From a virus: a stretch of 64,000 nucleotides of DNA. Both the position numbers and the translations under genes were made by a program. The DNA lies in IMG/VR virus record IMGVR_UViG_3300045988_112496, positions 1 to 64,000 of that record; one strand, given 5' to 3'. Positions 4,254 through 39,636 of the stretch are shown here, piece after piece; position 1 is the stretch's first letter; each line of letters opens with the position of its first letter. The notes beneath the pieces are model-generated. The model was not told where the DNA came from, ran no database searches, and saw only the letters and a program-made list of their open reading frames with translations.

Positions 4254-4255
4254 AG

Positions 4256-6035: not shown

Positions 6036-6039
6036 TCAA

Positions 6040-6782: not shown

Positions 6783-6816
6783 AGTTTATAATTTTAATAG
6801 ATTATTAATTCATTTA

Positions 6817-6847: not shown

Positions 6848-6870
6848 AGAATTAATAATCTATTTATAAA

Positions 6871-7864: not shown

Positions 7865-7867
7865 AAG

Positions 7868-8083: not shown

Positions 8084-8110
8084 ATTTTTGTCTATTTTAA
8101 AATTGATATG

Positions 8111-8141
8111 CAAATATAATAATTATATTTTAATTTGCAAA
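8111..8141 (-). promoter_or_regulatory. Bacteroidota-type promoter: -33 TTTG, 19-nt spacer, -7 TATATTTG
   Basis: TTTTTGCAAATTAAAATATAATTATTATATTTGCATATC. Confidence 0.7.
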
Positions 8142-8158
8142 AACCCCTAATACACAAC

Positions 8159-8183
8159 TGAGGCCACCATTAATAGGTAGCCT
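8159..8183 (-). terminator. stem-loop after gene 8189..9103
   Basis: GAGGCCACC-attaata-GGTAGCCTC (1 mismatch). The 3' arm carries CCTCAG. Confidence 0.45.
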
Positions 8184-8188
8184 CTAAG

Positions 8189-9103: not shown

Positions 9104-9362
9104 ATAAATAAGCCTTTCTTATATCTTTAGATTCATCATATCCTACTAACTCTAACTTATAACATACATAGCAATTAATACTAAGGTTATAAAAGTATGC
9201 CTTATAGGTTTTCTTTTTCACTGCCAAATTAAAAGAATCACCAGAGACATAATCCCTGGTGAAAATTAATTTATCACATTTGCCTATCGGAATATCAAGG
9301 CAAAGTTTCCAATCCTGGGCAATAAATTTATTGCCGTGAAGGTCTAGGATTTCCTTTGCCAT
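9087..9362 (-). CDS. hypothetical protein (about 91 aa)
   Basis: The track ORF starts at a GTG (9404). The ATG at 9362 (MAKEILDL...) is preferred because it shortens the overlap with 9328..9747. Confidence 0.5.
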   Translation of the reverse strand: MAKEILDLHGNKFIAQDWKLCLDIPIGKCDKLIFTRDYVSGDSFNLAVKKKTYKAYFYNLSINCYVCYKLELVGYDESKDIRKAYLYGKRR

Positions 9363-9747
9363 GACTTCCCTTTTTATAGGTAGATTGTTTTTTGTCTTGT
9401 TCACTGAGGTATTCCTTCTTCCTTTCTTCGATGAATCTTTGAATATCAGGGAACATTTTAGTTCTCAAAGGTACTACCTGAGTAGCAAAGAACGCATTCC
9501 ATAGGTTCTGTGTAAATGCCTCACCTACCTTGAGATTAGAGATTGCCCAGAATTTACTTTCGAAATTCTTAATGATTTCTCTAAACCTATAATAATATAA
9601 CTTATGAGTCTTAGGATTAATGCCAATGGTAGTAGTTTGGCAATAATCTAGAAACTCTTTGCCCAATTCGGAAATAAACTCTTCCCTTTTAAAATCATAG
9701 TTCTCTTGGTCGAGTTTAAATAACTTTACGTAATCTATTGCTTCCAT
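9328..9747 (-). CDS. hypothetical protein (139 aa)
   Basis: Minus-strand ORF. Confidence 0.65.
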   Translation of the reverse strand: MEAIDYVKLFKLDQENYDFKREEFISELGKEFLDYCQTTTIGINPKTHKLYYYRFREIIKNFESKFWAISNLKVGEAFTQNLWNAFFATQVVPLRTKMFPDIQRFIEERKKEYLSEQDKKQSTYKKGSHGKGNPRPSRQ

Positions 9748-9751
9748 ATAT

Positions 9752-10141
9752 TTAATCCTTAATTGTTTCTAAAGGGTAGGCCTTTAAGGTTACTTTCTTA
9801 GTTGCATCCTGGACCTGAAATAAATACCCTCGATAATTATCCTCATAATATGAGGACCATATTGCTTCCTTTACCCGATACCAATCCAAAGTCTTGGCAC
9901 CTTTGGGGATTCCTGTGATTAACAAGGCATGGTTATTAGTACCCAACCTAATATCAAAAATATCTTTGCCATCGAAATCTCCTATTATTACATAGTCCGG
10001 ATAGGTAGGATATTCTTTTAATTTGGGATAAGGTACACCTAATATATCTACTACGGTTTCGGGTTCTATAGTCTGGCCTTGAAATCTGATGTTTAATTTC
10101 GATTTACCTATATATAGGTCTTTGACTATATTTGTGAACAT
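9752..10141 (-). CDS. hypothetical protein (129 aa)
   Basis: Minus-strand ORF. Confidence 0.65.
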   Translation of the reverse strand: MFTNIVKDLYIGKSKLNIRFQGQTIEPETVVDILGVPYPKLKEYPTYPDYVIIGDFDGKDIFDIRLGTNNHALLITGIPKGAKTLDWYRVKEAIWSSYYEDNYRGYLFQVQDATKKVTLKAYPLETIKD

Positions 10142-10434
10142 AAGTAGACAATTATATGAGTTATACCTTCATCCTTGAAATTATTTAAGTTTGTTGCCTT
10201 TTCCTCAAGCCTTTTTAGGGTTTTTCTAGAATCAGTAGAGATTCTTCTAGTTGGAATCCTAACCAACATAAGGATATTCTCTAGTGCAGGTTGCAAAGCA
10301 TTAACTGGTCCTGCATAAAGTATCTTATGCTTCTTCCCACTAATTACATTATACTGGGTTTTATAAGAGTATTTACCTTTAATGTAAACTACCTCAACCT
10401 TTTTTATTTCTTCTTTTCTTATGTTTCTTACCAT
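10126..10434 (-). CDS. hypothetical basic protein (102 aa)
   Basis: Minus-strand ORF. Confidence 0.55.
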   Translation of the reverse strand: MVRNIRKEEIKKVEVVYIKGKYSYKTQYNVISGKKHKILYAGPVNALQPALENILMLVRIPTRRISTDSRKTLKRLEEKATNLNNFKDEGITHIIVYLCSQI

Positions 10435-10696
10435 AACCGTCTTTATTTATGTAATCTGATATTTCGTCTAATTGTCCCAAGAGTAATGCCTGCACAAATA
10501 TGGGTACAGGCCTGAAAAAGAAATTCCTTATGTTATTAGTATTAATATACCAGTCATATACAATAAAGAACTTCTTAATCTTCCTATGTTTAAGTGAACG
10601 TTGAACTAAGTAGGTTTTAACGCATCTTTTATGCAACTCCACCAACTCCTTGTCCTGCTTTAGCATCTCCTTTGTGGAGAATATAGTGTAATCCAT
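10394..10696 (-). CDS. hypothetical basic protein (100 aa)
   Basis: Minus-strand ORF with a Lys/Arg tail. Confidence 0.55.
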   Translation of the reverse strand: MDYTIFSTKEMLKQDKELVELHKRCVKTYLVQRSLKHRKIKKFFIVYDWYINTNNIRNFFFRPVPIFVQALLLGQLDEISDYINKDGYGKKHKKRRNKKG

Positions 10697-10726
10697 TTTT
10701 ATACCTTTAGAAGGTTAATACAATGA

Positions 10727-10755
10727 GGAAGGTATCTTGGTGTGAGATATCTTCC
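10727..10755 (-). terminator. stem-loop after gene 10768..11274
   Basis: GGAAGGTATCT-tggtgtg-AGATATCTTCC (1 mismatch). Confidence 0.4.
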
Positions 10756-10767
10756 CGGGAGGTTAAA

Positions 10768-11274
10768 TCAAGCAACTTGTTCGGGCTTAAGGACTTTGTT
10801 TTTGAAGTCCTCGTATGCCTTCGCGGCTTTCTTGTATTCTTTGGAGTTTTGGTCCTTGATACGAAACATTTCTCGTTCAAGTCGGTGAAGTTCATTGCGA
10901 GTTTGTTGTCTCCATTTCTTTCGAGCAAGAGTATCGGTAACATCTTCCGGATATACGTATTTTACTTCCCGGTTAGAGATTACTTTTTCGATGATGGAGG
11001 GTTTCTGTTGTTTTTCAACATCCTTTACTACCTCTGCTTTTTTGGAGGATTTCTTTGTGGGTTTTGGTTCCTCTTCTGGTTTAAGTGGAACGAGTTTAGC
11101 ACCTGCAAATTTCTTGGCAGCTTCTTGAGATTCCTCTACCAATTGAGCCTTAGTCTTTTTAGTTCCATTGGCCTTAGTAGTTTTAGACTTGGATGTAGCA
11201 TCCTTAATTCCTTCTAACTGTTGAGCAACTTTGTTACTGATAAGGTTAGCAACCTTGTTTTCATTCTTTTTCAT
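10768..11274 (-). CDS. Lys-rich low-complexity protein (168 aa)
   Basis: ORF downstream of promoter 11325-11355. K/E/A-rich. Shares a 'KY(V/D)YP ... KK(W/Y)R' segment with 13569..14123. Confidence 0.7.
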   Translation of the reverse strand: MKKNENKVANLISNKVAQQLEGIKDATSKSKTTKANGTKKTKAQLVEESQEAAKKFAGAKLVPLKPEEEPKPTKKSSKKAEVVKDVEKQQKPSIIEKVISNREVKYVYPEDVTDTLARKKWRQQTRNELHRLEREMFRIKDQNSKEYKKAAKAYEDFKNKVLKPEQVA

Positions 11275-11324
11275 AACGTCTATATTAAAAATGTTTATAA
11301 ATGAATTAATTTCTTATCACATTG

Positions 11325-11355
11325 CAAATATAAGAATAATATTTTATATAGCAAT
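11325..11355 (-). promoter_or_regulatory. Bacteroidota-type promoter: -33 aTTG, 19-nt spacer, -7 TATATTTG
   Basis: TTATTGCTATATAAAATATTATTCTTATATTTGCAATG. Confidence 0.65.
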
Positions 11356-11387
11356 AAAATAAAAAGAATATTTTTAAATAGCTGAGG

Positions 11388-11939
11388 TTAATCGGCTAAG
11401 AAGTCGAAGATCTCTGGAGCAAAATCTATTTCGTTTTCTGGGTCTGATAAATATTCGTCCAGGTTCTCATTATAATAATCCAGTTCTGATTTGGTCTTTG
11501 GAGCAGGTACAAAAGGTATACATTTTTCTGGGTATCTCTCTGCAAACTTAATAGCATCTTGATAAGTTAGTTTCTTATCAGTATAGAATTTAACCCAGGT
11601 ATGGGAATATCCCACTCCCTTTCTAGTAACTTCGTATTGTTGATATCCAGAATTACTTATTTGATAGATTTGATTCTCTGGTATGATTTCTATTTCTACC
11701 TGATATTCATATATCCTTTTCCCTAATCTATTTGCCATCTCTTGGATTGAATCCGTTAATGACTTAGGCTTATCAGCAAATGAGAAACTGTATTTAGTTT
11801 CTGGTACATCCTTCTTTTTAAACGACGGAGCAGGATTTATCCTGCTTGTATCGGGTGTAGGTTTTGAGCCTATTGCCAATCCAATTAGTATAAATCCTGC
11901 TAACCCTATAATGGGTAATTTTTTAAGACCTGAGTTCAT
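11388..11939 (-). CDS. membrane-anchored hypothetical protein (183 aa)
   Basis: Trimmed to the ATG at 11939 (MNSGLKKLPIIGLAGFILIGLAIG = TM/signal anchor). The longer track ORF would overlap the KTSC gene by 119 nt. Confidence 0.6.
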   Translation of the reverse strand: MNSGLKKLPIIGLAGFILIGLAIGSKPTPDTSRINPAPSFKKKDVPETKYSFSFADKPKSLTDSIQEMANRLGKRIYEYQVEIEIIPENQIYQISNSGYQQYEVTRKGVGYSHTWVKFYTDKKLTYQDAIKFAERYPEKCIPFVPAPKTKSELDYYNENLDEYLSDPENEIDFAPEIFDFLAD

Positions 11940-12189
11940 AGCCTGTAGTTTTAAACTTGTTCCTGATATTAGAAGAAACATATTTACCTTTAGACTCTGC
12001 AAGATGTAATTCATTGCAGATTTCGTGAGGTACACCATCATAACGATAAACTTTGTTGCCTTTAAAGGCTATCCAAAGTTGTTTGTTTTTGGAGTCATAT
12101 CCATATCCTTCAACGTTTGAGGATTCGCAGGGAATCATTTCAACTCCAGTGTTCAATTCTACTGATTCTAAGTATTCGTTCTTGTCCAT
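11923..12189 (-). CDS. KTSC-domain protein (88 aa)
   Basis: Pattern 'SSNVEGYGYDSKNKQLWIAFKGNKVYRYDGVPHEICNELHLAESKGKYVSSNIR' matches the KTSC domain consensus (recalled). Confidence 0.6.
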   Translation of the reverse strand: MDKNEYLESVELNTGVEMIPCESSNVEGYGYDSKNKQLWIAFKGNKVYRYDGVPHEICNELHLAESKGKYVSSNIRNKFKTTGYELRS

Positions 12190-12196
12190 AATTAAA

Positions 12197-12556
12197 TTAA
12201 AGTATTAGTGTAAGTTCAGGATGAAATTTATTAATCTCTTTGTGTAATATTTCCCATGCTTCGTAAACTCCTTGGGATAAATCATATATCCATTCGTCTT
12301 CCATTTTGAAGAGAATATGAGAACAGATATATAATTGGTATTCGTTCAGAGCTTTTATCAGTTGAGGCATTTCGTATATCTCTTGATAAATCTGAATATG
12401 ATGATTGACTGAATCAATCATTTCTTCATTGTTTATCTGTAACAGTTTTCTGAGTAAATCAGGTTCTGTTGTAGTGATATTGTTTTTGATATTAGTTAAT
12501 GCCTCAATTTGAATCTGAGCAATGTTCTTTACTACCTCTTTGGTTTCTGCATCCAT
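12197..12556 (-). CDS. hypothetical protein (119 aa)
   Basis: ORF downstream of the -7 box at 12579-12586. Confidence 0.65.
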   Translation of the reverse strand: MDAETKEVVKNIAQIQIEALTNIKNNITTTEPDLLRKLLQINNEEMIDSVNHHIQIYQEIYEMPQLIKALNEYQLYICSHILFKMEDEWIYDLSQGVYEAWEILHKEINKFHPELTLIL

Positions 12557-12578
12557 TTTAATATTATTTTTCGTTATA

Positions 12579-12610
12579 CAAATATAAGAATTTTATTTTA
12601 ATAAATAACA
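12579..12610 (-). promoter_or_regulatory. -7 box TATATTTG with weak -33 (TGTT)
   Basis: ...AAATTCTTATATTTGTATAACG, 23 nt upstream of the ATG at 12556. Confidence 0.5.
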
Positions 12611-12641
12611 CTCTTTTATTAAATACTGAGGTAGAGGATGT

Positions 12642-13481
12642 CTATCTAGAGATAGCTTCTTCGATTTTCTGTTTGATAGAATCTGGGAATATTACATCTT
12701 TGTACCATCTCATAAAGAACTTCGAAGGTTTTTTATCTGAGTTAAGTAATTGCCGTTGTTCTGCAGAGAACTTTAATCGTTCCTCCTCTAGCATAAATTT
12801 GGGGAACTTTGTGAACTCGGCTTGAGAGAAGGAGATGGTTTTCTTACCAACTGAGGCCCTTAACGGTTTCTTCCTTTCTTTATAAAGGTACGGAACAATT
12901 TTCTTCGATGGTCCACCAAGGATGCTAAAACCGAAGATGACCATTGGGTCAAATTTATCTGCTTTTGGGTCTTTGGCCCGTTTGATACATCTTGCCATCC
13001 AGGAGTACGAATTTGGATATTGCTTATTGTCAGTGGCTTCTCCCACATCCTTACTGTTGAATTCGAATCCGGGAAAGTGAAAAAGAAAGTCCTCTGTAAG
13101 AATAAAGACAAATCCCAATTCCCTTAGATACTTAATAATCTCTTGTTGGCTTTTACCTTCTTCCACCATTTTCTCTACATCTGCCAAGATATCTTCTCGA
13201 GGTGATTCAAGAAGTTGTTTACTACCATTAGAAGGTCTTCCTCTTCCTGCAGATTGTTCCTTGATTGGTAGGTTACCTACTAATTTATCTAAGTAATTCT
13301 TAAAGTTCTCTACATCTTGTTTATTTGTAAGAGTTACTTCAATTCTTAGTGGACCTGTATGTTGTACCTTTGGTCCCGTATTCATTTCTGTATAGGCATC
13401 TACTAATCTATCCTGAATGTAGGAACCATTTTCATCCAGGGTAGTGATACGTAATTTGGGTTTATATGTTTTCTCTTCCAT
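12642..13481 (-). CDS. hypothetical protein (279 aa) with AT-hook-like GRGRP
   Basis: Long ORF with 'SAGRGRPSNGSK'. Confidence 0.75.
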   Translation of the reverse strand: MEEKTYKPKLRITTLDENGSYIQDRLVDAYTEMNTGPKVQHTGPLRIEVTLTNKQDVENFKNYLDKLVGNLPIKEQSAGRGRPSNGSKQLLESPREDILADVEKMVEEGKSQQEIIKYLRELGFVFILTEDFLFHFPGFEFNSKDVGEATDNKQYPNSYSWMARCIKRAKDPKADKFDPMVIFGFSILGGPSKKIVPYLYKERKKPLRASVGKKTISFSQAEFTKFPKFMLEEERLKFSAEQRQLLNSDKKPSKFFMRWYKDVIFPDSIKQKIEEAISR

Positions 13482-21699: not shown

Positions 21700-22667
21700 G
21701 ATTCAGCTTTTTTAAGTATATCAATCAAAAGTTCTTTCTTATCTTGCTCAGTTATACCTTTTTCTTTAAGATACTTCCTTGCTAGAGCTTTTTTAGAAAG
21801 TTGCTTAGTAATTTTATGGTTAGTATTTACTAAGTTACTAGTTTTCTTAGGTAAAACGGTATAATAATTGCCATCTTCCTTAATTTCTTCTTCAGATTCT
21901 ACATCAATAAATTTTGGGAATTGCTTAAGGTGTACAAACTGCATTGATAAATCAGAATAAATTTTCCAATATCCCAATTTACAATCTCTATCAGTTCTCC
22001 TCTGATGATTAGGAGCTCCTATCATATAAACTTTCTTTGATAATCTTTGGGGTTTATGTATATGACCACATAATACCAAGTCAAATCTATTCAGAATGTT
22101 TACATTAAGATTTTCTACCGAATCAACTTCCCTACCATCCGTATCCTTTGCTCCTGGGTAATCGGTATGAAGAAGAAGGATATTCTTTACATTCTTATCT
22201 AGTTTGAGTTTCTTAAGATATTCGCTTAGTCCCACATTATTATCAATATAGGGAACACCATAAATATGGTAATCACCATAAGAACTCCATTTACATCTAG
22301 ATAAATCAATACAACTCATAAAATTCTTATGAAATACAAATGGCCACCCTTTACCTACTTTATTTATCTTATTTACCAATTTCAAATCATGATTACCATT
22401 GATGTAGATTAGCTTGAATTTTGGATAATTACCCTCTACTCTATCAAACTGTTCAGCAACGAATATTGCTAAGTCTTGGTCTATTGATTCTGGCTTATGA
22501 AATAAATCTCCACAGAATAAAGCCGGACATTTGTATTTCTCACATTGCCCCGCAATAACATCAAGGACCTTGATGCTATTCAAGGTCCTATTATTGTTTT
22601 CATTGAATTTTGCCCATAGATTAATGTGCAAATCTGAAAATGCTATAAATACTACTTCCTTACCCAT
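21693..22667 (-). CDS. Mre11/SbcD-like (T4 gp47-like) nuclease (324 aa)
   Basis: Calcineurin-type phosphoesterase motifs 'SDLH', 'GDLFH', 'GNHD', 'LLHT', 'GHIH'. Confidence 0.85.
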   Translation of the reverse strand: MGKEVVFIAFSDLHINLWAKFNENNNRTLNSIKVLDVIAGQCEKYKCPALFCGDLFHKPESIDQDLAIFVAEQFDRVEGNYPKFKLIYINGNHDLKLVNKINKVGKGWPFVFHKNFMSCIDLSRCKWSSYGDYHIYGVPYIDNNVGLSEYLKKLKLDKNVKNILLLHTDYPGAKDTDGREVDSVENLNVNILNRFDLVLCGHIHKPQRLSKKVYMIGAPNHQRRTDRDCKLGYWKIYSDLSMQFVHLKQFPKFIDVESEEEIKEDGNYYTVLPKKTSNLVNTNHKITKQLSKKALARKYLKEKGITEQDKKELLIDILKKAESC

Positions 22668-23358
22668 TGATAAAATCGTTGATAAGTTTTCTACGAATAT
22701 CCAAATTAGCTTCTCTTATACAAAGAACTTTAGTTTTACCATAAAGGGATTTAATTACTCCCTCGGTTGCACCGTATTCTAAAAGTTGATTCTTGAATAT
22801 ATTCTTGTATAAAGACTGTATCTCTTTAGTAGGTAGAAATCCCCACAAGTTCAATACATTATCCATTATAGAAGATATTAAGAACTGGAAGTAATTATTC
22901 TCTATTCGTTTGCCATTATCTTCCATAACCCATTCCTTTACCATTGCAGCAGTAAAATCTAATAGAATAAGATGAGTACATTGTTGATTGAGTAACATCT
23001 TACAAGTTTCGAAGAAGTGTCCCATTTCGCATTTAGGAACATTCTTTGCTTGCTTATAATAAAAGTAAGCAGCTAAATCAAGATAACTCCGGTCTGTAAC
23101 AAATCTATCTCTGTCTCTGAATAGTTTATTTCTTAAGTTCATTACCTGAAAATCTTCTAGTAATAAATCTTTAGAATCTCTCTCTAACATTTCTTTATGA
23201 GACATGTCTTTGGTTTTTGGGATTAAATCAGATACACTACCAGAGATAAACTCTAACTCGGGAGGGTATTCTGATACATCGAATTTTACCATTCCAGGAA
23301 CTTCTTTTGCTAAAGTGGTTTTCCCTACTCCACTTGCACCTGCAAACATTATTTTCAT
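22660..23358 (-). CDS. P-loop nucleotide kinase (dNK/dNMP-kinase-like) (232 aa)
   Basis: Walker A 'GASGVGKTT' at the extreme N-terminus. 'TDRSYLD' resembles the (E/D)RS motif of deoxynucleoside kinases. Confidence 0.5.
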   Translation of the reverse strand: MKIMFAGASGVGKTTLAKEVPGMVKFDVSEYPPELEFISGSVSDLIPKTKDMSHKEMLERDSKDLLLEDFQVMNLRNKLFRDRDRFVTDRSYLDLAAYFYYKQAKNVPKCEMGHFFETCKMLLNQQCTHLILLDFTAAMVKEWVMEDNGKRIENNYFQFLISSIMDNVLNLWGFLPTKEIQSLYKNIFKNQLLEYGATEGVIKSLYGKTKVLCIREANLDIRRKLINDFING

Positions 23359-26687: not shown

Positions 26688-27080
26688 TCAATCGTTATTA
26701 TTTGGTTCTGAGTAAATTATCTCATTCATACTCAATACGGTTAACGTGTTCTTTTCCAGAATCTGTTGTAAACCAGAAGTGAGTTTATCTGTTTCAAATT
26801 CTAGTTCCTTACCGGCATACAAACCATAGGTAACTATCCTACCAATTTGTACAAGGTCCCGATAAGTTCTATATTCTTCGGTAATCTCCCCGAGTTTAAC
26901 TATAACTCCCTTACGAGGAACTCCCTCTTTTACCTGTTCCGGAATAATAAGCCCAGACCTGGTTTGGTTTACTTCTTTTGGTGATAAGATAAGAACTCTG
27001 TTTTCAGTTGGACATCCTGGTAATTGTTTATCAAACTGAGCTGCTACCATAGCAGAGATAAAAGTCAATGAATAATTCAT
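26688..27080 (-). CDS. GroES/Cpn10-like co-chaperonin (130 aa)
   Basis: 'NRVLILSPKEVNQTRSGLIIPEQVKEGVPRKGVIVKLG...IGRIVTYGLYAGKELEF' parallels the GroES mobile-loop and core pattern. Confidence 0.6.
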   Translation of the reverse strand: MNYSLTFISAMVAAQFDKQLPGCPTENRVLILSPKEVNQTRSGLIIPEQVKEGVPRKGVIVKLGEITEEYRTYRDLVQIGRIVTYGLYAGKELEFETDKLTSGLQQILEKNTLTVLSMNEIIYSEPNNND

Positions 27081-28049: not shown

Positions 28050-28259
28050 TTATGTTGTCATAGTATCCTCTTTCTTCACCTTGGTTGGTGATTTTGGATT
28101 TTCTTTATGATGTAAGTATCTATTACATCCCGGGCACCTTACTAATTTACAATCTGCAAAGGTAGATGAATCTACTTCTGAATAATCATATTCGAATTCA
28201 CAATCACAATATGGGCATTTAGCTCGCCATATCGTGGGTCCGCTCAAAATCTTTTTCAT
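28050..28259 (-). CDS. zinc-ribbon protein (69 aa)
   Basis: CPYC...CPGC pairs. Confidence 0.55.
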   Translation of the reverse strand: MKKILSGPTIWRAKCPYCDCEFEYDYSEVDSSTFADCKLVRCPGCNRYLHHKENPKSPTKVKKEDTMTT

Positions 28260-30510
28260 AAGCCTTCATTTGTTTATTAAACCTTTCTTTAAATTGCTTG
28301 ATGTGGATATGTTTATATTTCTTATGTTCAGCCATATATTCCTCTACTGAGAAATCTGGTTGTAACATCTTACGATAATCATACCCTGGAATGAATGGTA
28401 ATTCCTCTGCCATAGTTCTACCAATGGTAAAGTCCATATCCATATCAACATCATCAACTTGAAATCCGAAATATCTTTTAGTACTTGGATTACGTAGGAT
28501 ATTCCAGATTGTATATACAGTCCATGTATTAATATCTTGAGGTTTAGAATACATATATACAGCATCATGTACTGTACAAGCTTCTTTCATCATAGGCAGT
28601 TTACCTTGTCTCATTAACCAATAAACGAGGATAGCTCCAAAATTAGTCATATTTGCTGCAGCACCTTGACATGGGAAATTAAGACCTAAACGAATTGCAT
28701 AAGCTACTTCTTGCTTATCATTTGAATATATTTGTGGGAGTCTTCGTTTAGTACCAAATAACTGAGTATAATACCCATGTTTACGAAGGAATTTCTCTTG
28801 TTTCTCTTTAAACTTCCTAATCTTAGGGTGTTGACCAAAGAATACTTCCATTTCCTTTGCTGCTTCTTCTGGTGTAACTATAATACCAGCTTTTGGGTCT
28901 GATAATTTTACTGCTAGCAATTTATTACCGATTCCATAAATAAGTCCAAAAGCAATTTGTTTAGCTTGCTTTCTCCTTACCTTCCATAATTTATAATCGG
29001 GATGTGTTTCATCTTCATAAGCTTTACTTGCTTCTTCGATTGATACACCATATTTTGCTGCTGCTATACCAAGGTGAGGGTCTACTCCCTTTGCAAAAGC
29101 TTCCAAATAAGTTTCATCACCAGATAAATGAGCCATCATTCTTAATTCTGCTTGAGAATAGTCAAAGGCCATATATAGATAACCCGGAGGAGCAACTAAT
29201 TGTTTCTTGATATTAGGGTCTACGGATGTTTTTGGTATCTGCTGCATATTTGGGTCTGCAGAACTAAACCGATTAGAATCGGTACCATGTATATTATATC
29301 TACCATGTAATCGAGAATCATCCTGTACTTTTTCCCACCATCCATAAATATAGGTCTTATACATTTTCTCTAAACCTCTTAATTCTAAGAGCTTATCAAG
29401 AAATATTGCCTTTGGAGATTCGGGGTCTTTTACTGTTAACCTTAACTCGGTTAAAGTATCTTCATCGGTACTTGGTTTACCAGATTCATTATCTTTAATT
29501 ACTGGGAACTTAAACCCAATATCTGAATACATTAACTGAGGTAAATCAACTGGACTACCCAGATTAACTGGTCTTATAAGTTCTTGTTCTTTCTTAGTAG
29601 TAAATACTCCTGCACGAATATTCGATATCTTCTGCTCCCTTGATGCTATCTTACGTTTATCTTTTGGGTCATTATAATCCAGTTCTTCAAGTTCTGCTTT
29701 GATTGATTCGATATATCTTTCAATTTTACCCTGATTGTATTTCTTTGTGAACTTCTTTACCCTTGGTAAATCATAAATTGCTTGTCTAGCAGCATCAATC
29801 TTAGGTTTATATTCCTCAAGTAATTTCTTATTGAAATCTCTATCAAGGTATAATCCTTCTTTCTCTACCGAAGTTAATACTCGAGAATTACACATGAACA
29901 AATTACGGAATACCGAATACATTTTTAAGTCAATTAACTTCTTCTCAAAGAATATCATTAATCGTAAAGTAAAGTCGGTATCTTGACAACCATATTTACA
30001 TAAAGGGTCTAATTCCTTTTTATCCCAAGGTATCTTATCGAACTTATCTTGCTTTTCATAATCTCCATATTCAGGTAAATACCTTCTAACCATATCTTTT
30101 AGTCCATGAGGTTTTTCTTCATTGAGAACATATTTTGCAAGCATACCATCAAGACATGTACCCCTATAATAAATATGATACTTCTGATTAATCTGGTCAT
30201 CAAATTTCCAGTTCCATGCAACCTTTACAATATCATAATTCTCAATAATCTCCTCTCCAAACTTCCTTAACATCTTCTTCCAATTCCATCCTGGAGAAGT
30301 ATATTCTTTTGTTTGGAAATGGTCTAAGGGTATAGAAGCACCAAACCCTGGCATCCAAGATACAGAGAGAATTGTGGGCTTAAAACTTTTGTTGTAGATT
30401 GGTTCAGCATTAGTTTCATAGTCACAGCAAGCATAACCAGTTGCTTTACAACAAGCAATTAGCTTCTTGAGTTCTCTTTTGTTCTTAATTATTTTATATC
30501 TTGTTTCCAT
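28219..30510 (-). CDS. family A DNA polymerase with 3'-5' exonuclease domain (763 aa)
   Basis: ExoI 'CDYETN'. 'TDSNRFSSADPNMQQIP'. Motif A 'DYSQAELRMMAH'. Motif B 'RRKQAKQIAFGLIYG'. Motif C 'VHDAV'. Confidence 0.95.
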   Translation of the reverse strand: METRYKIIKNKRELKKLIACCKATGYACCDYETNAEPIYNKSFKPTILSVSWMPGFGASIPLDHFQTKEYTSPGWNWKKMLRKFGEEIIENYDIVKVAWNWKFDDQINQKYHIYYRGTCLDGMLAKYVLNEEKPHGLKDMVRRYLPEYGDYEKQDKFDKIPWDKKELDPLCKYGCQDTDFTLRLMIFFEKKLIDLKMYSVFRNLFMCNSRVLTSVEKEGLYLDRDFNKKLLEEYKPKIDAARQAIYDLPRVKKFTKKYNQGKIERYIESIKAELEELDYNDPKDKRKIASREQKISNIRAGVFTTKKEQELIRPVNLGSPVDLPQLMYSDIGFKFPVIKDNESGKPSTDEDTLTELRLTVKDPESPKAIFLDKLLELRGLEKMYKTYIYGWWEKVQDDSRLHGRYNIHGTDSNRFSSADPNMQQIPKTSVDPNIKKQLVAPPGYLYMAFDYSQAELRMMAHLSGDETYLEAFAKGVDPHLGIAAAKYGVSIEEASKAYEDETHPDYKLWKVRRKQAKQIAFGLIYGIGNKLLAVKLSDPKAGIIVTPEEAAKEMEVFFGQHPKIRKFKEKQEKFLRKHGYYTQLFGTKRRLPQIYSNDKQEVAYAIRLGLNFPCQGAAANMTNFGAILVYWLMRQGKLPMMKEACTVHDAVYMYSKPQDINTWTVYTIWNILRNPSTKRYFGFQVDDVDMDMDFTIGRTMAEELPFIPGYDYRKMLQPDFSVEEYMAEHKKYKHIHIKQFKERFNKQMKAYEKDFERTHDMAS

Positions 30511-30516
30511 ATATTA

Positions 30517-30562
30517 TAAATAAAAAGAGGGACATACCCACCTGTAGTAGATATATCCCTCT
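30517..30562 (-). terminator. intrinsic terminator between the ThyA-like gene and the DNA polymerase gene
   Basis: AGAGGGA...TCCCTCT followed on the minus strand by TTTTTATTTAT. Confidence 0.8.
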
Positions 30563-30567
30563 ATAAA

Positions 30568-31338
30568 TTAGAGTGAATCCTGTAAGTCCTCAAGATTGGT
30601 ATTTAAGTATTTCCAGTCTTTTTTATAAGAATGAAGAGAATCGATTGTGTGGTATAAGTAACCAGGTTTTACTCCAACCTCTTTAGCTACATATTCCATA
30701 AGTCTCCATGCAAGATATACATCATTACCAAAGTGAGTAACAAAATCTGAGCTTCTTTGGTGATAACAAATATGTAATACTTTCTCACCTTTACCATTCT
30801 CTCTGATGAGGAAGTCATAATACATAGAGCATGGAATACGTTTGCTACCATCAAGATATCTTAAGTCTGAACCAAAGAATATAGGGAGTACTGCTTTCCG
30901 AGTATCATTATCTCTTTTAAGCAATTCAATAACAGTTTGTAGATGATATTCAGAATTGAACGGTAGTTTACCACCCACTGGAAACTCTTTCCAAATACGT
31001 TCTGAATAGGTATAATCGAATTTACCATCTACCAGGAATTGTTCCCATAAATCTTTTCTTAATGCCCATGCTTGTCCCGGATTATAAGCATACCAACTAA
31101 CCCTTTCTTTAAATTCTTCATCTGCCCATTCTTTTGAATGAGAGAATACGAATAACCATACTGGGTCTCCCAATGAAGTTAAGCAGTACTGCTGGCAAAT
31201 AAGTTCCTTAGTAGCAAAATCCTCATTACCTTCAATCACCTTGTTTTGATAAGTCTTAGGTCTTACTATCTGACCGTAAGAGTTGAGTTCTCTGCCAAGT
31301 TCTGACATTAACTCAAATGAATTACTGTAGATTCTCAT
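30568..31338 (-). CDS. ThyA-fold pyrimidine C5 transferase, closest in pattern to T4 gp42 dCMP hydroxymethylase (256 aa)
   Basis: 'RDNDTRKAVLPIF', nucleophile 'RIPCSMYYDF', 'YHQRSSDFVTHFGNDVYLAW', 'DSLHSY'. Asp lies 11 residues after the conserved Arg, as for Asp179 in gp42 (Asn in ThyA). Confidence 0.7.
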   Translation of the reverse strand: MRIYSNSFELMSELGRELNSYGQIVRPKTYQNKVIEGNEDFATKELICQQYCLTSLGDPVWLFVFSHSKEWADEEFKERVSWYAYNPGQAWALRKDLWEQFLVDGKFDYTYSERIWKEFPVGGKLPFNSEYHLQTVIELLKRDNDTRKAVLPIFFGSDLRYLDGSKRIPCSMYYDFLIRENGKGEKVLHICYHQRSSDFVTHFGNDVYLAWRLMEYVAKEVGVKPGYLYHTIDSLHSYKKDWKYLNTNLEDLQDSL

Positions 31339-32263
31339 TCTTCTGTTTCTTTAAAAGTTTCTTTTTATAAGCTTTACGTTGAGAATATGATATCACATTT
31401 TCTGGATATTCTATATCTTCATATTCTAATAGCAAGTCCTTTGCTAACAAAGCTTGGTATTCATATAAGTCAGGACGAAGTACTTTAAAACTTCTGAAAA
31501 ATACTTTAAATGAAGACCATTCCTTCTCTGTACCGTTTTGGATTTTCTTATAAACCTCTTTAACCCTTTTAGTCCAAGGGTTATCTATACCCTTGATTAC
31601 TTTCTTAAGAGGTTTATAAGCCGAGTACATCAGAAGGGTTTCTACATTCCCATACATTTGAGTAGCAAATAAATTTATCTGTACCGACTGTTCTGGCCCA
31701 TACACGTATTCTGCCATCCGTTGAATCAATAGGAAGTCGAATATCAACCGCTTGGTAATTTCCGAAGCCCTGATTACCATTGTAATAACTGGGATGTCTT
31801 CCCCAAACCTTTTCGAAAATGTTGCAGCTATTAGACACTGTTTACCATTATCATGGTGATTATTAAACATGTACGTAACATTGTAATTCTGATTATATTT
31901 ATTCTTCAAGAGTCTTAATTTGCTACGTAAGAGGTCTAACTTATTAAAATCAATATAATTATTCAATAAGCTTGTCCACTTAGTTTCTTTGTAATTAAAA
32001 CATCTACCATAATCAAAATCAGGGTCTACCCATGCTTTACGTATTTTTATAAACACGTTGTATGCTACTGCAACTCCACTGTTTGCAGTAGCACCTTTAT
32101 CAAAAAGAACAGGGTCTAATCTTAAGAAAGCCTCGTTCAATTTCTCCCATGCCTCTTGTGAAGTAGCAAACTCCAAAGAGTGGAGGGTCTCCTCCGTATT
32201 AGATTGAAGACCCTCTAGTTTTCTATTCCATCCACTCATTAGTAATTTGTTTTTTGTCTCCAA
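31322..32263 (-). CDS. divergent second ThyA-fold-like protein (313 aa), function unknown
   Basis: 'GKQCLIAATF' then 'IRASEITKRLIFDF' (Cys to Arg = 22 residues, Asp at Arg+11), 'ATQMYGN'. 17-nt overlap with the downstream paralog. Confidence 0.35.
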   Translation of the reverse strand: METKNKLLMSGWNRKLEGLQSNTEETLHSLEFATSQEAWEKLNEAFLRLDPVLFDKGATANSGVAVAYNVFIKIRKAWVDPDFDYGRCFNYKETKWTSLLNNYIDFNKLDLLRSKLRLLKNKYNQNYNVTYMFNNHHDNGKQCLIAATFSKRFGEDIPVITMVIRASEITKRLIFDFLLIQRMAEYVYGPEQSVQINLFATQMYGNVETLLMYSAYKPLKKVIKGIDNPWTKRVKEVYKKIQNGTEKEWSSFKVFFRSFKVLRPDLYEYQALLAKDLLLEYEDIEYPENVISYSQRKAYKKKLLKKQKNENLQ

Positions 32264-33081
32264 AGATTTAACCTTTGTTTCTTAAAGAATAATCTATAAA
32301 TTGATTCTTCTGAAAATTCTTGGATACCCAAAAATCCCATATACAGATAGAATGCTTTTACTAAGGAATATTGAAAATCTAATTCCTTAGTCATTACCTG
32401 GGTTTGTTTCCAAGGCCTTGATTTAAGAAGGTTCCTTGCAATGTTCAATTCATAGATTATTTCGAATAACAATAACTTTTCATTTTCATGTGAAGATTCG
32501 CTTAAGGTGTTGAATCCTGGAGTATATTCTTTTACAGACTCATATTCTTCGTCAATCAATCTAAATCGATTTGCCAATAGGGGATTCCTTCCAATTTCAG
32601 AAGTCAAGGCTATACCCAAGGTAATTACATCTTTCATGGTTTTTACTTTGAAGTCAGAATATTCGTATACTGCATTTGTTCCCCAAGAGAATATATCCTC
32701 TGGTTGTATGTTTGCAAAATGAAACAAGGTGAAGAAGAATCCAAGAGCATCTCCCTGTTCTTCATTGGCATTTTGTAAATGATTTAGTACCTGGGTATAT
32801 TCATCTTCAGTAAGTTGTTCAACATTCCATCCCCATTTATTGCATATCTTTACTACTTCAGAAGTAGATTCGTATCCTTCCATTAGTTCTTCAATTACTC
32901 GACTGATGAAATCTTTCAAAACTACCTGGTTATTTGGATTATTGATATCCAAAGGATAATCTGGTAGTCTCTCAATTTGCCTGTAGCCGTCTAATTGTTC
33001 TAACGAAAGTTGATATATAGCTTGTAACTCAGTACCTTCTTCTATTTGAGGTACTTGTTCTTTAATATTCCTTATATCCAT
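32239..33081 (-). CDS. all-alpha NTP pyrophosphohydrolase (T4 gp56 dCTPase/dUTPase-like, MazG-like) with C-terminal extension (280 aa)
   Basis: 'RVIEELMEGYES' and 'NEEQGDALGFFFTLFHFANIQPEDIFSW' parallel the gp56 segment 'ELVDIFHFVLNMFVGLGMNAEEIFKLY'. Confidence 0.5.
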   Translation of the reverse strand: MDIRNIKEQVPQIEEGTELQAIYQLSLEQLDGYRQIERLPDYPLDINNPNNQVVLKDFISRVIEELMEGYESTSEVVKICNKWGWNVEQLTEDEYTQVLNHLQNANEEQGDALGFFFTLFHFANIQPEDIFSWGTNAVYEYSDFKVKTMKDVITLGIALTSEIGRNPLLANRFRLIDEEYESVKEYTPGFNTLSESSHENEKLLLFEIIYELNIARNLLKSRPWKQTQVMTKELDFQYSLVKAFYLYMGFLGIQEFSEESIYRLFFKKQRLNLWRQKTNY

Positions 33082-33635
33082 TATTTATTTCCTGTTGAAT
33101 TAAATCCACCTTCACCTCTTGTTCCCCACATTTGAGATTCAGAATAGAATTCCTCTGGTTGAATCTCTTCTGGTTCCGTAAGGTAAACTGGAACATGAAT
33201 AAACTGAGTTGCTTTCTCACCCACTTTAAAAGTCTGTATTACTCGGCTGAGATTGATAATACCAATATGAATCTCTCCCACATAGGGAGAATCTACAATT
33301 TCGGCAGTATACAGAATACCTTTCTTAGAAGCAAGGCCAGACTTATTAGCTGCCATAAGCATTGATTCTTGAGGTTCAATAAGTGGTTTGATACCAGATG
33401 GGATAAGGATTCTTCCTCCAGGATAAAGGTCAATTTGGGTTACAAAATTGGTAAGGGTGTCTACTCCCAATACAAAATCTGGAGTGAAATGATTTGGAGA
33501 TTGGTTTGCCTCCATGTGAATTAATTGTTGAGGGTCCAAGTTTCTTGGGATATAGAAATCCAAACCGGCATCACCTGCATTACCTCTCGATGGAGTCTTT
33601 ACGTCTCTTACTTTGATAAATCTAAATCTGTTCAT
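33081..33635 (-). CDS. dut: trimeric dUTPase (with insertion) (184 aa)
   Basis: Motifs 'AGDAGLD', 'PSGI', 'IVDSPYVGE', 'RGEGGFNSTG'. Confidence 0.85.
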   Translation of the reverse strand: MNRFRFIKVRDVKTPSRGNAGDAGLDFYIPRNLDPQQLIHMEANQSPNHFTPDFVLGVDTLTNFVTQIDLYPGGRILIPSGIKPLIEPQESMLMAANKSGLASKKGILYTAEIVDSPYVGEIHIGIINLSRVIQTFKVGEKATQFIHVPVYLTEPEEIQPEEFYSESQMWGTRGEGGFNSTGNK

Positions 33636-34884: not shown

Positions 34885-36363
34885 TCATAAAGAATGAATA
34901 GGATGATTCTTCCATATCTTCTCTAACAGAATAACTTTCAATTCTTGTTTTTGATAATATTGCTTCCTATGTTTACCATGTCTGTTAAGATAGGGACCAG
35001 GATAGTGTAAGTCATCCAGGTAAACCTTTTTCTTTGAGGAATCAGTTCTTACCAAACGACCCAGGAACTGAATAGATTTTTCCTGGCTATCCATTGATGC
35101 TGCATTAAGTAAATACCTAAGCTTAGGAAAGTTTTTACCTCGAGCAATGATTGTAGTTGATACCAGGATATCTATCTTGCCTTCCCTAAAATCTTTCATT
35201 ATTTGTTGTCTTATCTTTGAATTAGTATCTACATGCACACAGGCAATATTATATTTGCTCCCTAGTTTCTTTTTAAAGTATTTGTATAAATTCTCACAAT
35301 GTGCAATATACTTGCATACTACGAGTGCAGGATATCTGCCCTGTTTGATATTCCATTTAAGCCGAGCATAAACCATTTTCCTTGCATACTTATTAAAGGT
35401 AATAGAATCATCATAAATATCCTTATAAGATACTTCCTCAGATTCCCAATTACCATACCAAGGTTTACTTGGAACCATCTTTACAATTGTACGAGTTGAA
35501 TAACCTTTCTTAATAGAATCCTTGAGTTTAAACTCTGCAAGTACCTTACCAAAGAAACATTCGAGATTTGTATTCTTTACTTTATCCTTAGCAAGCTTAC
35601 TCATATAAATGGTACCAGATAATCCAATACGAACCCTGGTATTAAATAAACGAGTAAGTACATTTTGATATTGCTTACTACCTGCTTGGTCAGCCTCATC
35701 CACCAAAACCATATCTATCTTAGATAATTCTCCTTGATAGAATTTCATATTACGAGAAATAGATTGAACCATACCGATAGTAAAGTTACTCCAATTTAAT
35801 ACTTTACCTTGAACAAAGGTGATCTGTTCTCCAGGTAGGTATTTCTTAAATTCATCTCTAGCTTGATTTAACCAGTCAGAATCATTAGTTATAAGCAAAG
35901 TCTTTAACTGCTTCTTATAGGATAAATAAAGAGACGACATGATAAGAGTTTTACCTGCATTAACTGTGTAATCTAAAACTCCAATTTGAAAAGAAGCTTT
36001 ACCTACCCTATTATTAATTACTGCTTTAACTGCCTTCTCTTGTTCTGGTCTTAATTTATATTCTCCTATCCTTGTAACAACTTTACTGACTTTTGGTAAA
36101 GGTTGTCTCATATCTACAACTTTAGGTTTAATTCCATACTCAATACATTTATCATATACTGCAGGAAGTAAACCTATCTTAAATTCACCATGCTTATTAA
36201 TATAATGAATCTTACCATCCCAGTTCTGCATACCTCTTTGCCTGGTACGTAAGTAAAAGGCATTTGGATGACGAATGGCAAACTCGATATAGAGTTTCTG
36301 TGCGAACTTAAGAGGTAAGTCCAGTTCGCACATATTCCCATTCTGTATAATTATCCTACTCAT
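34885..36363 (-). CDS. SF2 DEAD-box-type DNA helicase (UvsW/type III res-like) (492 aa)
   Basis: Motif I 'NAGKT', II 'VDEAD', III 'SGT', VI 'QFLGRLVR'. Confidence 0.85.
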   Translation of the reverse strand: MSRIIIQNGNMCELDLPLKFAQKLYIEFAIRHPNAFYLRTRQRGMQNWDGKIHYINKHGEFKIGLLPAVYDKCIEYGIKPKVVDMRQPLPKVSKVVTRIGEYKLRPEQEKAVKAVINNRVGKASFQIGVLDYTVNAGKTLIMSSLYLSYKKQLKTLLITNDSDWLNQARDEFKKYLPGEQITFVQGKVLNWSNFTIGMVQSISRNMKFYQGELSKIDMVLVDEADQAGSKQYQNVLTRLFNTRVRIGLSGTIYMSKLAKDKVKNTNLECFFGKVLAEFKLKDSIKKGYSTRTIVKMVPSKPWYGNWESEEVSYKDIYDDSITFNKYARKMVYARLKWNIKQGRYPALVVCKYIAHCENLYKYFKKKLGSKYNIACVHVDTNSKIRQQIMKDFREGKIDILVSTTIIARGKNFPKLRYLLNAASMDSQEKSIQFLGRLVRTDSSKKKVYLDDLHYPGPYLNRHGKHRKQYYQKQELKVILLEKIWKNHPIHSL

Positions 36364-36950
36364 TTGATAATTACAGTTACACCTTTAGATTCATTAGTTG
36401 AAATACCCATAGCTTCTCGGAGAAGTTTGATATGGTGTTCCTCATCAGCCACCAACTTATTTAAGAAATACATCACATCATCATAATCTGCCCGGTCATC
36501 GTAAACAGCAAGGTGATTCATGATAGTTCTGTAGTAATCGATTGTTTCTTGTTCTGAACTCAAAGCAACCTTTAGTGCATCATTTCGAGTACTACCAATT
36601 TCAATCTTAGGGTTAATCTCCATACTACTGTAATCCTCATGGGGATTAGCTTTCTGTAAGAAATCAGATAACTTGTCATAATGTCTCATTTCTACCAAAC
36701 CTATACCCAACATCAGTTCTGCAATATCATCAAACCGGGATGACTGTTGAGTATACATAAGGATTGCTGTAGTCTCTGAAAAACTGGCAGTCTTAAGTAT
36801 ATGCTCAAACATCTTAACGATATCTTCCGGCCAAGGTTCGATATCATTGAAATCTGGATAGTCTACTGACTGGTCCGAATACTTGAGGACATCAATAAAA
36901 GCATTAGCTGCATCCTCTACTCTGTTGCCCATAAATTTTAAAGCTTTCAT
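36360..36950 (-). CDS. ferritin-like / Mn-catalase-like di-metal carboxylate protein (196 aa)
   Basis: Four-helix pattern E...'VEMRH'...E...'DEEHH' (two ExxH motifs). Confidence 0.55.
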   Translation of the reverse strand: MKALKFMGNRVEDAANAFIDVLKYSDQSVDYPDFNDIEPWPEDIVKMFEHILKTASFSETTAILMYTQQSSRFDDIAELMLGIGLVEMRHYDKLSDFLQKANPHEDYSSMEINPKIEIGSTRNDALKVALSSEQETIDYYRTIMNHLAVYDDRADYDDVMYFLNKLVADEEHHIKLLREAMGISTNESKGVTVIIK

Positions 36951-38236: not shown

Positions 38237-39190
38237 TCACTTTAAATGGTTTCTGATTTGGATTAATTCTTGATAACTTTGATACCTTGTCTGATATACT
38301 AATCTAAGAGTTTCTTTTCTACCCAAATCATTTACATCTTTTCCTTCTGGTAAAAACACCACCTTGACTTTTTTATAGGCAACAAGTTTGAGCGCCAGAT
38401 TGATTGCATATTTCTTGGCATCTGGGTCCAGCAATATAATAAATCTTTCGCATGAGGATTTAAGTAATTCATTGACTTGGTATCCAGATATAGCTTTACC
38501 CATTGTGGCAATTCCTCTATCCCCGATAGTAAGGGCATTGAGTGCACCTTCACAGATGTATACCGACCTATACATCTCCAACGCATCATAATTAAAGATG
38601 ATAAATTCTTTTCCAACTCCTGTGATATCTTTATTGGGGTTGTTATACCGAGGACCAGCTCCGATGACATTTCGGGCATTGTAATACCTAAGTTGTCCCT
38701 TATAATAAAAGGGTATAATGAGGTAACCAAAATAGGGTTCTTTTGTTGAGTAGCCAACACCATGTTTACATAACTCCTCGATGCTAAAGCCACGGCTCTT
38801 GACATATCCCCTAATGCTCCTTGCAACCTGTGAATTGCCAAGGTTAAGGATTCTGAATCCTTCGGGGAGATACAAAGGCTTAGCTTCTGATAATTCAATC
38901 TTTTCCTCATGGAATTCAAGCTCATCAAATTTTCCACTGTTTAAGAAATTAATAAGTTCATGATAAGTATCGAATCCTTCTATATCCATAACCAATTGAG
39001 AAGGATTCGGATGTTCATTACATCTAAAGCAATTGGTTCTATACATTGATAAATTAACTCCCATCTTTAATTCTCGATGGCAGTATGGGCATACTGGAAG
39101 TTTCATCCAGCCATGTTTATAATCGAATGCCGATAACCTCTTAACAAAGTAAGTTTTTAATTGTGATTTAAACCTATTAGTTATCTTCAT
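38237..39190 (-). CDS. DNA primase (zinc finger + TOPRIM) (317 aa)
   Basis: 'CPYCH...CFRCNEH'. TOPRIM 'ICEGALNAL' and 'LLDPDA'. Confidence 0.8.
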   Translation of the reverse strand: MKITNRFKSQLKTYFVKRLSAFDYKHGWMKLPVCPYCHRELKMGVNLSMYRTNCFRCNEHPNPSQLVMDIEGFDTYHELINFLNSGKFDELEFHEEKIELSEAKPLYLPEGFRILNLGNSQVARSIRGYVKSRGFSIEELCKHGVGYSTKEPYFGYLIIPFYYKGQLRYYNARNVIGAGPRYNNPNKDITGVGKEFIIFNYDALEMYRSVYICEGALNALTIGDRGIATMGKAISGYQVNELLKSSCERFIILLDPDAKKYAINLALKLVAYKKVKVVFLPEGKDVNDLGRKETLRLVYQTRYQSYQELIQIRNHLK

Positions 39191-39636
39191 AATCTAAATC
39201 TTTTAGTATATTCAGTTATAGAAAAATCACTAACATTGTATCTTTGTTTGATAATCTTTCTTGGTATACCTATTAAGTAGTCAGCTTGAATACAAGATAT
39301 TATAAATTCACTTCTAGGTTTCTTACCCTTAGGTTTAAGTCTACCATCCCTAATACATTGTTTAGTATTTTCCTTATGAGTACACCAGTAAAGATTATCT
39401 ACAGAGTTATTAGTTCTTATATTGTCTTTATGACCTACACAAGGTAAATTATGAGGATTGGGTATAAAGGTTATAGCTATAATTCTGTTCAACCTAAAAG
39501 TTTTCTTACATAAATGAACTTGAGAATAACCATTCCTCCTATTAACACCCACCTTCAAAAACCTACCTATCTTCTTAGAATATATCCTACCATCTCGAGT
39601 AGCATATAAATAACTAAACCCTGGAATCTTTTTCAT
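39187..39636 (-). mobile_element. HNH homing endonuclease gene (149 aa) inserted between primase and helicase
   Basis: 'GHKDNIRTNNSVDNLYWCTHKEN' H-N-H/N motif with a NUMOD-like N-terminus 'YATRDGRIYS'. Overlaps both neighbours. Confidence 0.8.

Follow-up and report, generated by a model that had tools for sequence, protein, structure and literature searches.

Pool-level modification of cytosine by homologues of thymidylate synthase (ThyA) in which Asp replaces Asn177 (Escherichia coli numbering) is well known. In phage T4, gp56 hydrolyses deoxycytidine triphosphate (dCTP), the Asp-bearing ThyA-family enzyme gp42 modifies the monophosphate (dCMP) at C5, and gp1 re-phosphorylates the product. 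At present, three or four signature residues serve to assign members of the ThyA family to product classes. In hydroxymethylases, the third residue ahead of the catalytic Cys (Cys-3) is Asp or Glu, and the second ahead of the catalytic Tyr (Tyr-2) is Ser or Thr (Park et al. 2019, PMC6400193); T4 gp42 has Asp145 and Ser94 at these positions, and its D145N variant is inactive (PMC6400193). The 5-hydroxy-dCMP synthases have Asn at the position of E. coli Asp169 (Lee et al. 2026, PMC13326640). Thymidylate synthases have Leu at Cys-3, and their C-terminal tail seals the active site for hydride transfer. The MetaGPA study singled out positions 177 and 147 as those that best separated the thymidylate synthase homologues of cytosine-modified contigs from those of unmodified contigs (PMC8670742), and in metaviromes N177D ThyA genes, together with genes for all-alpha nucleoside triphosphate (NTP) pyrophosphatases and the DNA polymerase PolA, are enriched on cytosine-modified contigs (PMC8670742; bioRxiv 10.1101/2024.12.05.627091). 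Here we analysed a block of four genes (30568..33635, minus strand) directly upstream of a family-A DNA polymerase gene in a stretch of 64,000 nucleotides of phage DNA (IMG/VR record IMGVR_UViG_3300045988_112496, positions 1 to 64,000; hereafter the window). Judged by its signature residues, the ThyA-family enzyme of this block falls into none of the published product classes, and it is accompanied by a constant partner that is probably a second, very divergent ThyA-fold protein.

With moderate confidence we read the block as a module for the pre-replicative editing of the pyrimidine nucleotide pool that would feed the phage's own family-A polymerase, its product being a C5-modified deoxycytidine nucleotide. 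A previous, sequence-only reading of the same DNA had predicted non-canonical cytosine made by a T4-like set of enzymes. The general part of that prediction is supported by the Asp-bearing ThyA homologue, by the coupled pyrophosphatase, probably of the gp56 family, and deoxyuridine triphosphatase (dUTPase), and by the presence of a kinase in the module. The specific likeness to T4 did not hold, and a full replacement of cytosine is doubtful.

The ThyA-like product (256 residues) contains all four motifs that had been taken as signs of a ThyA fold (RDNDTRK, RIPCS, QRSSD and DSLHSY) and matches the Pfam family PF00303 (Thymidylat_synt) with 51.8 bits at a cutoff of 24.3. Its residues C170, R195-S196-S197-D198 and H236/Y238 correspond to the catalytic residues C146, R166-D169 and H207/Y209 of E. 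coli ThyA. The Asp that had been noticed 11 residues past the conserved Arg (R195 to D206) does occupy the column of E. coli N177. The stretch from R195 to this column is ungapped in MAFFT alignments, where the column holds D179 of T4 gp42 and an Asp of the Xp12 enzyme, and it is likewise ungapped in HMMER alignments to AfhB (9iqu/9iqc) and MilA (5b6d), which also have an Asp there. The segment of T4 gp42 that had been quoted alongside the new protein proved correct.

The label "T4 gp42-like" had to be abandoned all the same, as both hydroxymethylase signature residues are missing. At Cys-3 the window enzyme has Arg167 instead of the Asp145 of gp42, and at Tyr-2 it has Tyr109 (His in the distant half of its clade) instead of Ser94. 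The two proteins are 22% identical, and gp42 is not among the PDB sequence matches at E<1. Since an Arg stands in place of the water-activating Asp, a T4-type hydroxymethylation is argued against. What the enzyme does share with gp42 is that it has no C-terminal sealing tail: only 18 residues follow the HxY motif (Y238), compared with 28 in T4 gp42, 55 in E. coli ThyA and 61 in Xp12. In this respect it is unlike thymidylate synthases or the Xp12 enzyme, and the missing tail argues against a reductive methylation of the thymidylate synthase type. Three further hallmarks of canonical thymidylate synthases, Asn177, Leu143 and His147, are replaced by Asp, Arg and Ser, respectively, and the protein falls far short of the cutoffs of the NCBIfam thymidylate synthase equivalogs (e.g. 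50.6 bits vs 174.55).

Among PDB sequences, the best matches at E<1 were entries of the flavin-dependent dCMP hydroxylase AfhB (9iqu/9iqc, named phage HY126 dCMP hydroxylase AfhB in the Foldseek library), followed by MilA in third place. AfhB and RB69 gp48, which are flavin-dependent 5-hydroxy-dCMP synthases, represent the closest sequence and fold matches and are likewise short and tail-less with an Asp at position 177. However, they combine D169N with a Glu at Cys-3, whereas the window enzyme has Asp198 at the Asp169 position, as do all members of its clade, together with the Arg at Cys-3; arabinose or glycosylation genes do not accompany it. As Asp169 is retained, the cofactor is most probably folate. 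MilA, from the mildiomycin pathway of Streptomyces, is a cytosine-specific ThyA homologue with Asp at 177, but it has an Asp at Cys-3, acts on a ribonucleotide (CMP) and serves an antibiotic pathway rather than a phage replication module. By its residues, the window enzyme belongs neither to the T4 hydroxymethylase class nor to the flavin-dependent dCMP hydroxylase class.

The same pattern recurred in every relative examined: Cys-3 is Arg, positions 177 and 169 are both Asp, Tyr-2 is either Tyr or His, Lys or Gln replaces the second Arg in the RR pair, and the tail measures 7-35 residues. On this residue pattern, the Arg-type ThyA enzymes are a distinct clade that fits none of the published product classes. 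For the equivalent of E. coli Glu58 the alignment varied between runs, and we make no claim about this position. The nearest relatives of the ThyA-like protein are 90-91% identical to it, followed by others at 83%, with an indel of about 15 residues near residues 117-135, while dozens of contigs carry the adjoining partner protein at 98-99% identity. This contrast suggests an exchange of alleles or a faster evolution of the ThyA-like gene.

The gene next to it (31322..32239), which had been left without interpretation, encodes what profile comparisons indicate to be a divergent ThyA-fold protein and the constant partner of the Arg-type ThyA clade. Searched alone, the partner sequence had no match in Pfam, NCBIfam or the PDB sequences, and in PHROG it matched only one family, whose function is unknown. 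When 1.84 billion representative proteins were scanned in full, 156 clusters matched at E<=0.001, and single protein clusters in this search comprise thousands of member sequences. In an alignment of 55 diverse members with a mean column identity of 19%, the residues K87, Y95, C135, R157 and D168 are invariant and E160 and R164 nearly so. None of the 55 members matches PF00303 at E<=0.1, nor any other Pfam family. The spacing of these residues, on the other hand, is that of the ThyA active site: R157 and D168 lie 11 residues apart, as do R166 and N177 in thymidylate synthase, and E160 falls on the position of Asp169.

Profile-profile comparison with hhalign of the partner family against ThyA alignments gave E-values of 3.2e-5, 1.2e-5 and 2.4e-6 (probability 73%, 81% and 89%), and every comparison paired C135 with the nucleophilic Cys, R157 with R166 and D168 with position 177. 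Control comparisons with the pyrophosphatase and kinase alignments remained at E 0.3-0.4. An earlier run with close relatives only (Neff 1.4) had produced a sensible alignment at E 0.2-0.3, and support came with the inclusion of diverse members. When the partner profile was searched against all PDB sequences, only the AfhB entries 9iqc/9iqu were matched. Cross-searches between the two families scored above reversed-sequence controls: a ThyA profile recognised 10 of the 86 partner sequences at p<1e-4, compared with 0 of 86 when these were reversed. Two public records name distant members of the family "pyrimidine hmase synthase", a wording that presumably derives from the CDD model TS_Pyrimidine_HMase. 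Taken together, the profiles and residue spacing suggest that the partner is probably a very divergent ThyA-fold protein that has kept the nucleophile and the cytosine-type specificity residue. We also considered a kinase, a pyrophosphatase or a deaminase; these assignments were rejected for lack of profile similarity. In the gut phage MT121964 (locus L002), two tandem partner paralogues (4000-4989 and 4982-5767; 36% and 41% identical to the window copy) precede the ThyA-like gene.

The co-occurrence of the two genes is strict. In a tblastn search of INPHARED, the partner was found in 13 records, which are precisely those with the 13 best ThyA-like matches (three human-faecal phage records and ten Clostridium perfringens phages). 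For synteny we compared 37 diverse loci, consisting of IMG/VR contigs of ~76-87 kb and two references. The gene order was SNF2 helicase, an optional dUTPase, pyrophosphatase, partner, ThyA-like enzyme and PolA, and 35 loci keep the order partner, ThyA and PolA, with the ThyA gene immediately after the partner. A related order (kinase, pyrophosphatase, a protein of ~270 residues, ThyA and PolA) is present in five more distant cultured phages, namely Gordonia phage CherryonLim, Brevundimonas phage Strzyga, Serratia phage Opt-155, Yersinia phage P744 and record MW202455. Their ~270-residue proteins match the partner profile with p-values from 5e-25 to 1e-7, and their ThyA genes have the Arg-type signature of Arg at Cys-3 and Asp177. 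CherryonLim, Opt-155 and P744 have a dCMP/cytidine deaminase gene between the Arg-type ThyA and PolA, which the window phage lacks. Wherever we examined it, i.e. in gut, C. perfringens, Serratia, Yersinia, Brevundimonas and Gordonia phages, the partner gene lies directly upstream of an Arg-type ThyA gene. In the literature that we searched, we found no description of the Arg-type clade with its obligatory, unannotated second protein of probable ThyA fold, and Benler et al. 2021 do not mention these genes.

All four open reading frames (ORFs) of the block were recovered at the coordinates given in Table 1. The junctions between dUTPase and pyrophosphatase and between pyrophosphatase and partner both read TAATG, with one shared nucleotide, and the partner and ThyA-like genes overlap by 17 nucleotides. 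From these junctions it follows that the partner starts at the ATG at 32239 (305 residues) and not at the TTG at 32263, in agreement with the gene callers. The four genes are translationally coupled.

Table 1. Products of the four-gene block, of the downstream polymerase gene and of the kinase gene in the window.
Product	Position	Strand	Length and family
Trimeric dUTPase	33081..33635	-	184 aa; PF00692, five motifs
All-alpha NTP pyrophosphatase, dUTPase_2/dCTPase family	32239..33081	-	280 aa; probable PF08761, presumed dCTPase
Very divergent, probable second ThyA-fold protein (partner)	31322..32239	-	305 aa; no Pfam family; profile-profile comparison
ThyA-family enzyme, predicted dCMP C5-modifying	30568..31338	-	256 aa; PF00303
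Family-A DNA polymerase	28219..30510	-	PF00476 and PF01612, precomputed for an identical gene
P-loop deoxynucleoside kinase (dNK)-like nucleoside/nucleotide kinase	22660..23358	-	232 aa; AAA_28, phrog_2107

The pyrophosphatase had been compared to T4 gp56, and this comparison was supported: both probably belong to PF08761, as judged from the scores of orthologues, a match at the C-terminus and shared motifs. T4 gp56 itself scores 25.4 bits with PF08761, and for the orthologues the values are 27.0 bits (MT121964) and 45.2 bits (C. perfringens phage P21). BLASTP aligned the window protein to the C-terminus of gp56 with 31% identity over 49 residues (E 3e-4), the PHROG families of the two proteins match each other, and the motifs EExxE, EExxD, KPWKQ and KK..N..RQ..Y are common to both. 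The assignment of a canonical trimeric dUTPase was likewise confirmed by a profile match (PF00692, 39.9 bits, cutoff 22) and by all five motifs, which read DAGLDF (motif I), KSG, IVDSPYVG, GEKATQ and RGEGGFNSTG; an insertion of ~30 residues separates motifs I and II. PDB dUTPases match the protein down to E 1e-11 with motifs II-V aligned.

The kinase gene lies apart from the block. It had been proposed to encode a dNK-like P-loop kinase and an analogue of T4 gp1; the first part stands, and for the second there is no detectable similarity. The protein has a P-loop, a DRS-type motif and a lid-like Arg, and it matches AAA_28 with 26.7 bits as well as phrog_2107. Among 13 family members, AAA_28 was detected in all and the dNK family PF01712 in 12. 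In most distant loci, kinase homologues follow directly after PolA.

For the pathway itself we infer the substrates, the order of steps, the product and its incorporation into DNA. The gp56-family pyrophosphatase would convert dCTP, and perhaps deoxyuridine triphosphate (dUTP), to the monophosphate. The ThyA-like enzyme would then bind dCMP via Asp206, attack C6 with Cys170 and add a group at C5. The divergent partner, with its Cys135, Arg157 and Asp168, would work with this enzyme, either catalysing a further reaction of the modified nucleotide or serving as a partner subunit. Re-phosphorylation would be started by the dNK-like kinase, and the adjacent polymerase, the presumed user of the altered deoxynucleoside triphosphate pool, would incorporate the product, while the trimeric dUTPase would exclude dUTP from the pool. 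Because the 5-hydroxymethyl and 5-hydroxy signatures as well as the thymidylate synthase/Xp12 tail are all absent, the product cannot be named from sequence.

In its logic of dCTP hydrolysis, dCMP modification and re-phosphorylation, this scheme corresponds to the T4 pathway, with which it probably also shares the Pfam family of the pyrophosphatase. In contrast to T4, the kinase is unrelated to gp1, glucosyltransferases are absent, and the module has an additional, obligatory protein with a probable ThyA fold, a separate trimeric dUTPase and, in the same genome, a C5 DNA-methylase-like gene.

Several findings weigh against the proposed pool editing. One is the divergent methylase-like gene, which resides on contig L163 (87.8 kb). 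This contig is 99.9% identical to window positions 1-12811 and extends past position 1; the gene (L163:17723-18715, plus strand) lies 4.9-5.9 kb beyond that point. Its product (330 residues) has a precomputed PF00145 match and the motifs CAGQG, PDC and ENL. In the related gut phage MT121964, a gene with 48% identity is annotated as DNA cytosine methyltransferase, and tblastn against 50,697 phage records found two relatives only at E<=1e-10, one of them in MT121964. Since a C5 methylase requires an unsubstituted C5 in DNA, a complete replacement of cytosine is doubtful: either cytosine is exchanged only in part, or the methylase acts on some other target, or what the cassette makes does not enter the DNA.

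The individual components raise further objections. The window pyrophosphatase scores 21.6 bits with PF08761, just below the cutoff of 22.9, and the substrate of this presumed dCTPase is not deducible from its sequence. The ThyA fold of the partner is assigned through profile comparisons, at the probabilities given above. A structure model of the ThyA-like protein, built from a shallow alignment, was poor, with a predicted local distance difference test (pLDDT) score of 54 and family-level Foldseek matches only (template modelling score, TM, ~0.35), and it was therefore not used for residue geometry. T4 gp1, whose structures we take to be PDB 1DEK/1DEL, was not found among the PDB matches of either the kinase sequence or its family profile. 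Neither in the window nor in the sampled flanks did we recognise a glycosyltransferase or any other decorating enzyme; for the window, this agrees with the sequence-only reading and with the absence of a Pfam match among the ORFs scanned. More broadly, a Pfam search of the window and of ~14.5 kb of flanks of the ~87.7-kb genome recognised no glycosyltransferase, dihydrofolate reductase (DHFR), deaminase or canonical thymidylate synthase. Finally, we found no literature on DNA modification or restriction resistance of the C. perfringens, Serratia, Yersinia, Brevundimonas and Gordonia carriers.

The strongest rival to the proposed editing is that the pair makes 5-methyl-dCMP, leading to 5-methylcytosine (5mC) in the DNA or, together with the deaminase of the relatives, to thymidine triphosphate (dTTP) by an alternative thymidylate route. 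We regard this as rather unlikely, although several observations speak for it. The E. coli N177D mutant methylates dCMP (PMC8670742), and a non-acidic residue at Cys-3 is read as a methyl signature in the field; Xp12, the prototype of the dCMP methyltransferases compared here, has Asn there and shares the Asp at 177. The deaminase gene between ThyA and PolA in the Serratia, Yersinia and Gordonia relatives resembles the arrangement in 5mC phages. In such deaminase neighbourhoods, five of seven tested ThyA homologues made 5-methyl-dCMP (5mdCMP), and the deaminase acted on the corresponding triphosphate, 5mdCTP (bioRxiv 10.1101/2024.12.05.627091). Moreover, the authors who described the Gordonia CT cluster annotate the cassette as thymine synthesis. 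On the other hand, the tail required for hydride transfer is kept in Xp12 and missing in the Arg-type clade. Xp12 has a DHFR neighbour and no partner protein, whereas the window and the sampled flanks yielded neither a DHFR nor a deaminase, and such sequences of experimentally tested homologues as were available lacked the motifs of the clade.

A true T4-type pathway, in which the ThyA-like enzyme would be a dCMP hydroxymethylase making 5-hydroxymethyl-dCMP (5hm-dCMP) and all cytosine of the virion would be 5-hydroxymethylcytosine (5hmC), appears to us more doubtful still. It would account for the Asp at 177, the retained Asp169, the absence of a C-terminal tail and the presence of both a gp56-family pyrophosphatase and a kinase, and the His at Tyr-2 in the distant half of the clade might offer an alternative base for water activation. 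However, Cys-3 is Arg throughout the clade, where the hydroxymethylase signature demands Asp or Glu; given that D145N inactivates the T4 enzyme, Arg at this position is not expected to support the T4-type reaction. Furthermore, Tyr-2 is Tyr or His and not Ser or Thr, the similarity to gp42 is low, as noted above, the C5 DNA-methylase-like gene in the genome conflicts with an all-5hmC virion, and the obligatory second gene would be left unexplained.

Ordinary salvage, with canonical DNA and the ThyA-like protein acting as a divergent thymidylate synthase fed by the dUTPase, is very improbable, because no clade member retains Asn177, His147, Leu143 or the C-terminal tail and the NCBIfam equivalogs stay far below their cutoffs, even though every public annotation reads thymidylate synthase, the dUTPase lies in the same operon and the C5 DNA methylase of the genome implies ordinary cytosine.

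Our preferred reading remains C5 editing of the deoxycytidine pool. As to its chemistry, we tentatively raise the possibility of a two-component system, in which the Arg-type ThyA and its obligatory partner would make a yet undescribed C5 modification of cytosine that is neither methyl, hydroxymethyl nor hydroxy. A possible route is that the partner Cys re-activates the first product, or that it traps an exocyclic methylene intermediate with a non-water nucleophile.

The window has a G+C content of 34.9%, and the block lies in the replication region of the phage, which is transcribed from the minus strand. Upstream of the block, the gene order is DnaB helicase, HNH endonuclease, Toprim primase, rubrerythrin-like protein, SNF2 helicase and three small ORFs; downstream of it follow the family-A DNA polymerase, a gp32-like single-stranded DNA-binding protein, a RecA-like recombinase, a 5'-3' exonuclease, the P-loop kinase and homologues of SbcD and SbcC. 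A megablast search of the block against the 50,697 phage records gave no match. Between the stop of the ThyA-like gene and the start of PolA (30511..30567, minus strand) there is an inverted repeat (AGAGGGA...TCCCTCT) followed by a T run and then by TATAAT ahead of the polymerase ATG. By its sequence, this segment resembles an intrinsic terminator together with a promoter element, which would part the nucleotide operon from the polymerase gene.

Several other genes of the region deserve mention. The rubrerythrin/ferritin-like protein (36360..36950, minus strand; 196 residues; PF02915, 38.7 bits) is encoded directly upstream of the SNF2 helicase and is kept in close relatives. An HNH/NUMOD4 homing-endonuclease-like gene (39187..39636, minus strand) separates the primase gene from that of the DnaB helicase. 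The PolA gene consists of two ORFs in several distant loci (L099, L106 and L149); these splits could be due to mobile insertions similar to the HNH/NUMOD4 gene. A Cpn10/GroES-like co-chaperonin (26688..27080, minus strand; PF00166, 40.1 bits) is encoded by the phage within the replication/recombination region, and a muramidase gene adjoins the C5 methylase-like gene. Past window position 64000 (L165:1-8794), there are two very large tail proteins (2082 and 1366 residues) with faint matches to the Peptidase_S74 and BACON domains. The BACON match is a hint of a Bacteroidota host; by contrast, the closest relatives of the cassette in culture infect C. perfringens.

DNA modifications of phages decide which restriction, CRISPR and other defences work on them, and they have repeatedly yielded enzymes for epigenetic sequencing. 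The cassette described here is carried by an ~87-kb phage that has been assembled from very many human-gut samples, and the pair is also found in phages amenable to laboratory culture, which makes the product directly testable. The analysis also corrects the annotations "thymidylate synthase" and "thymine synthesis", at least in the Gordonia, Serratia, Yersinia and C. perfringens phage genomes that we examined. A large clade that stands outside all product classes, and that always comes with a second protein of probable ThyA fold, means that either the signature rules are incomplete or further chemistry exists. If the two-component route to a novel modification is true, this modification would occur in abundant human-gut phages as well as in cultured phages of Clostridium, Serratia, Yersinia, Brevundimonas and Gordonia.

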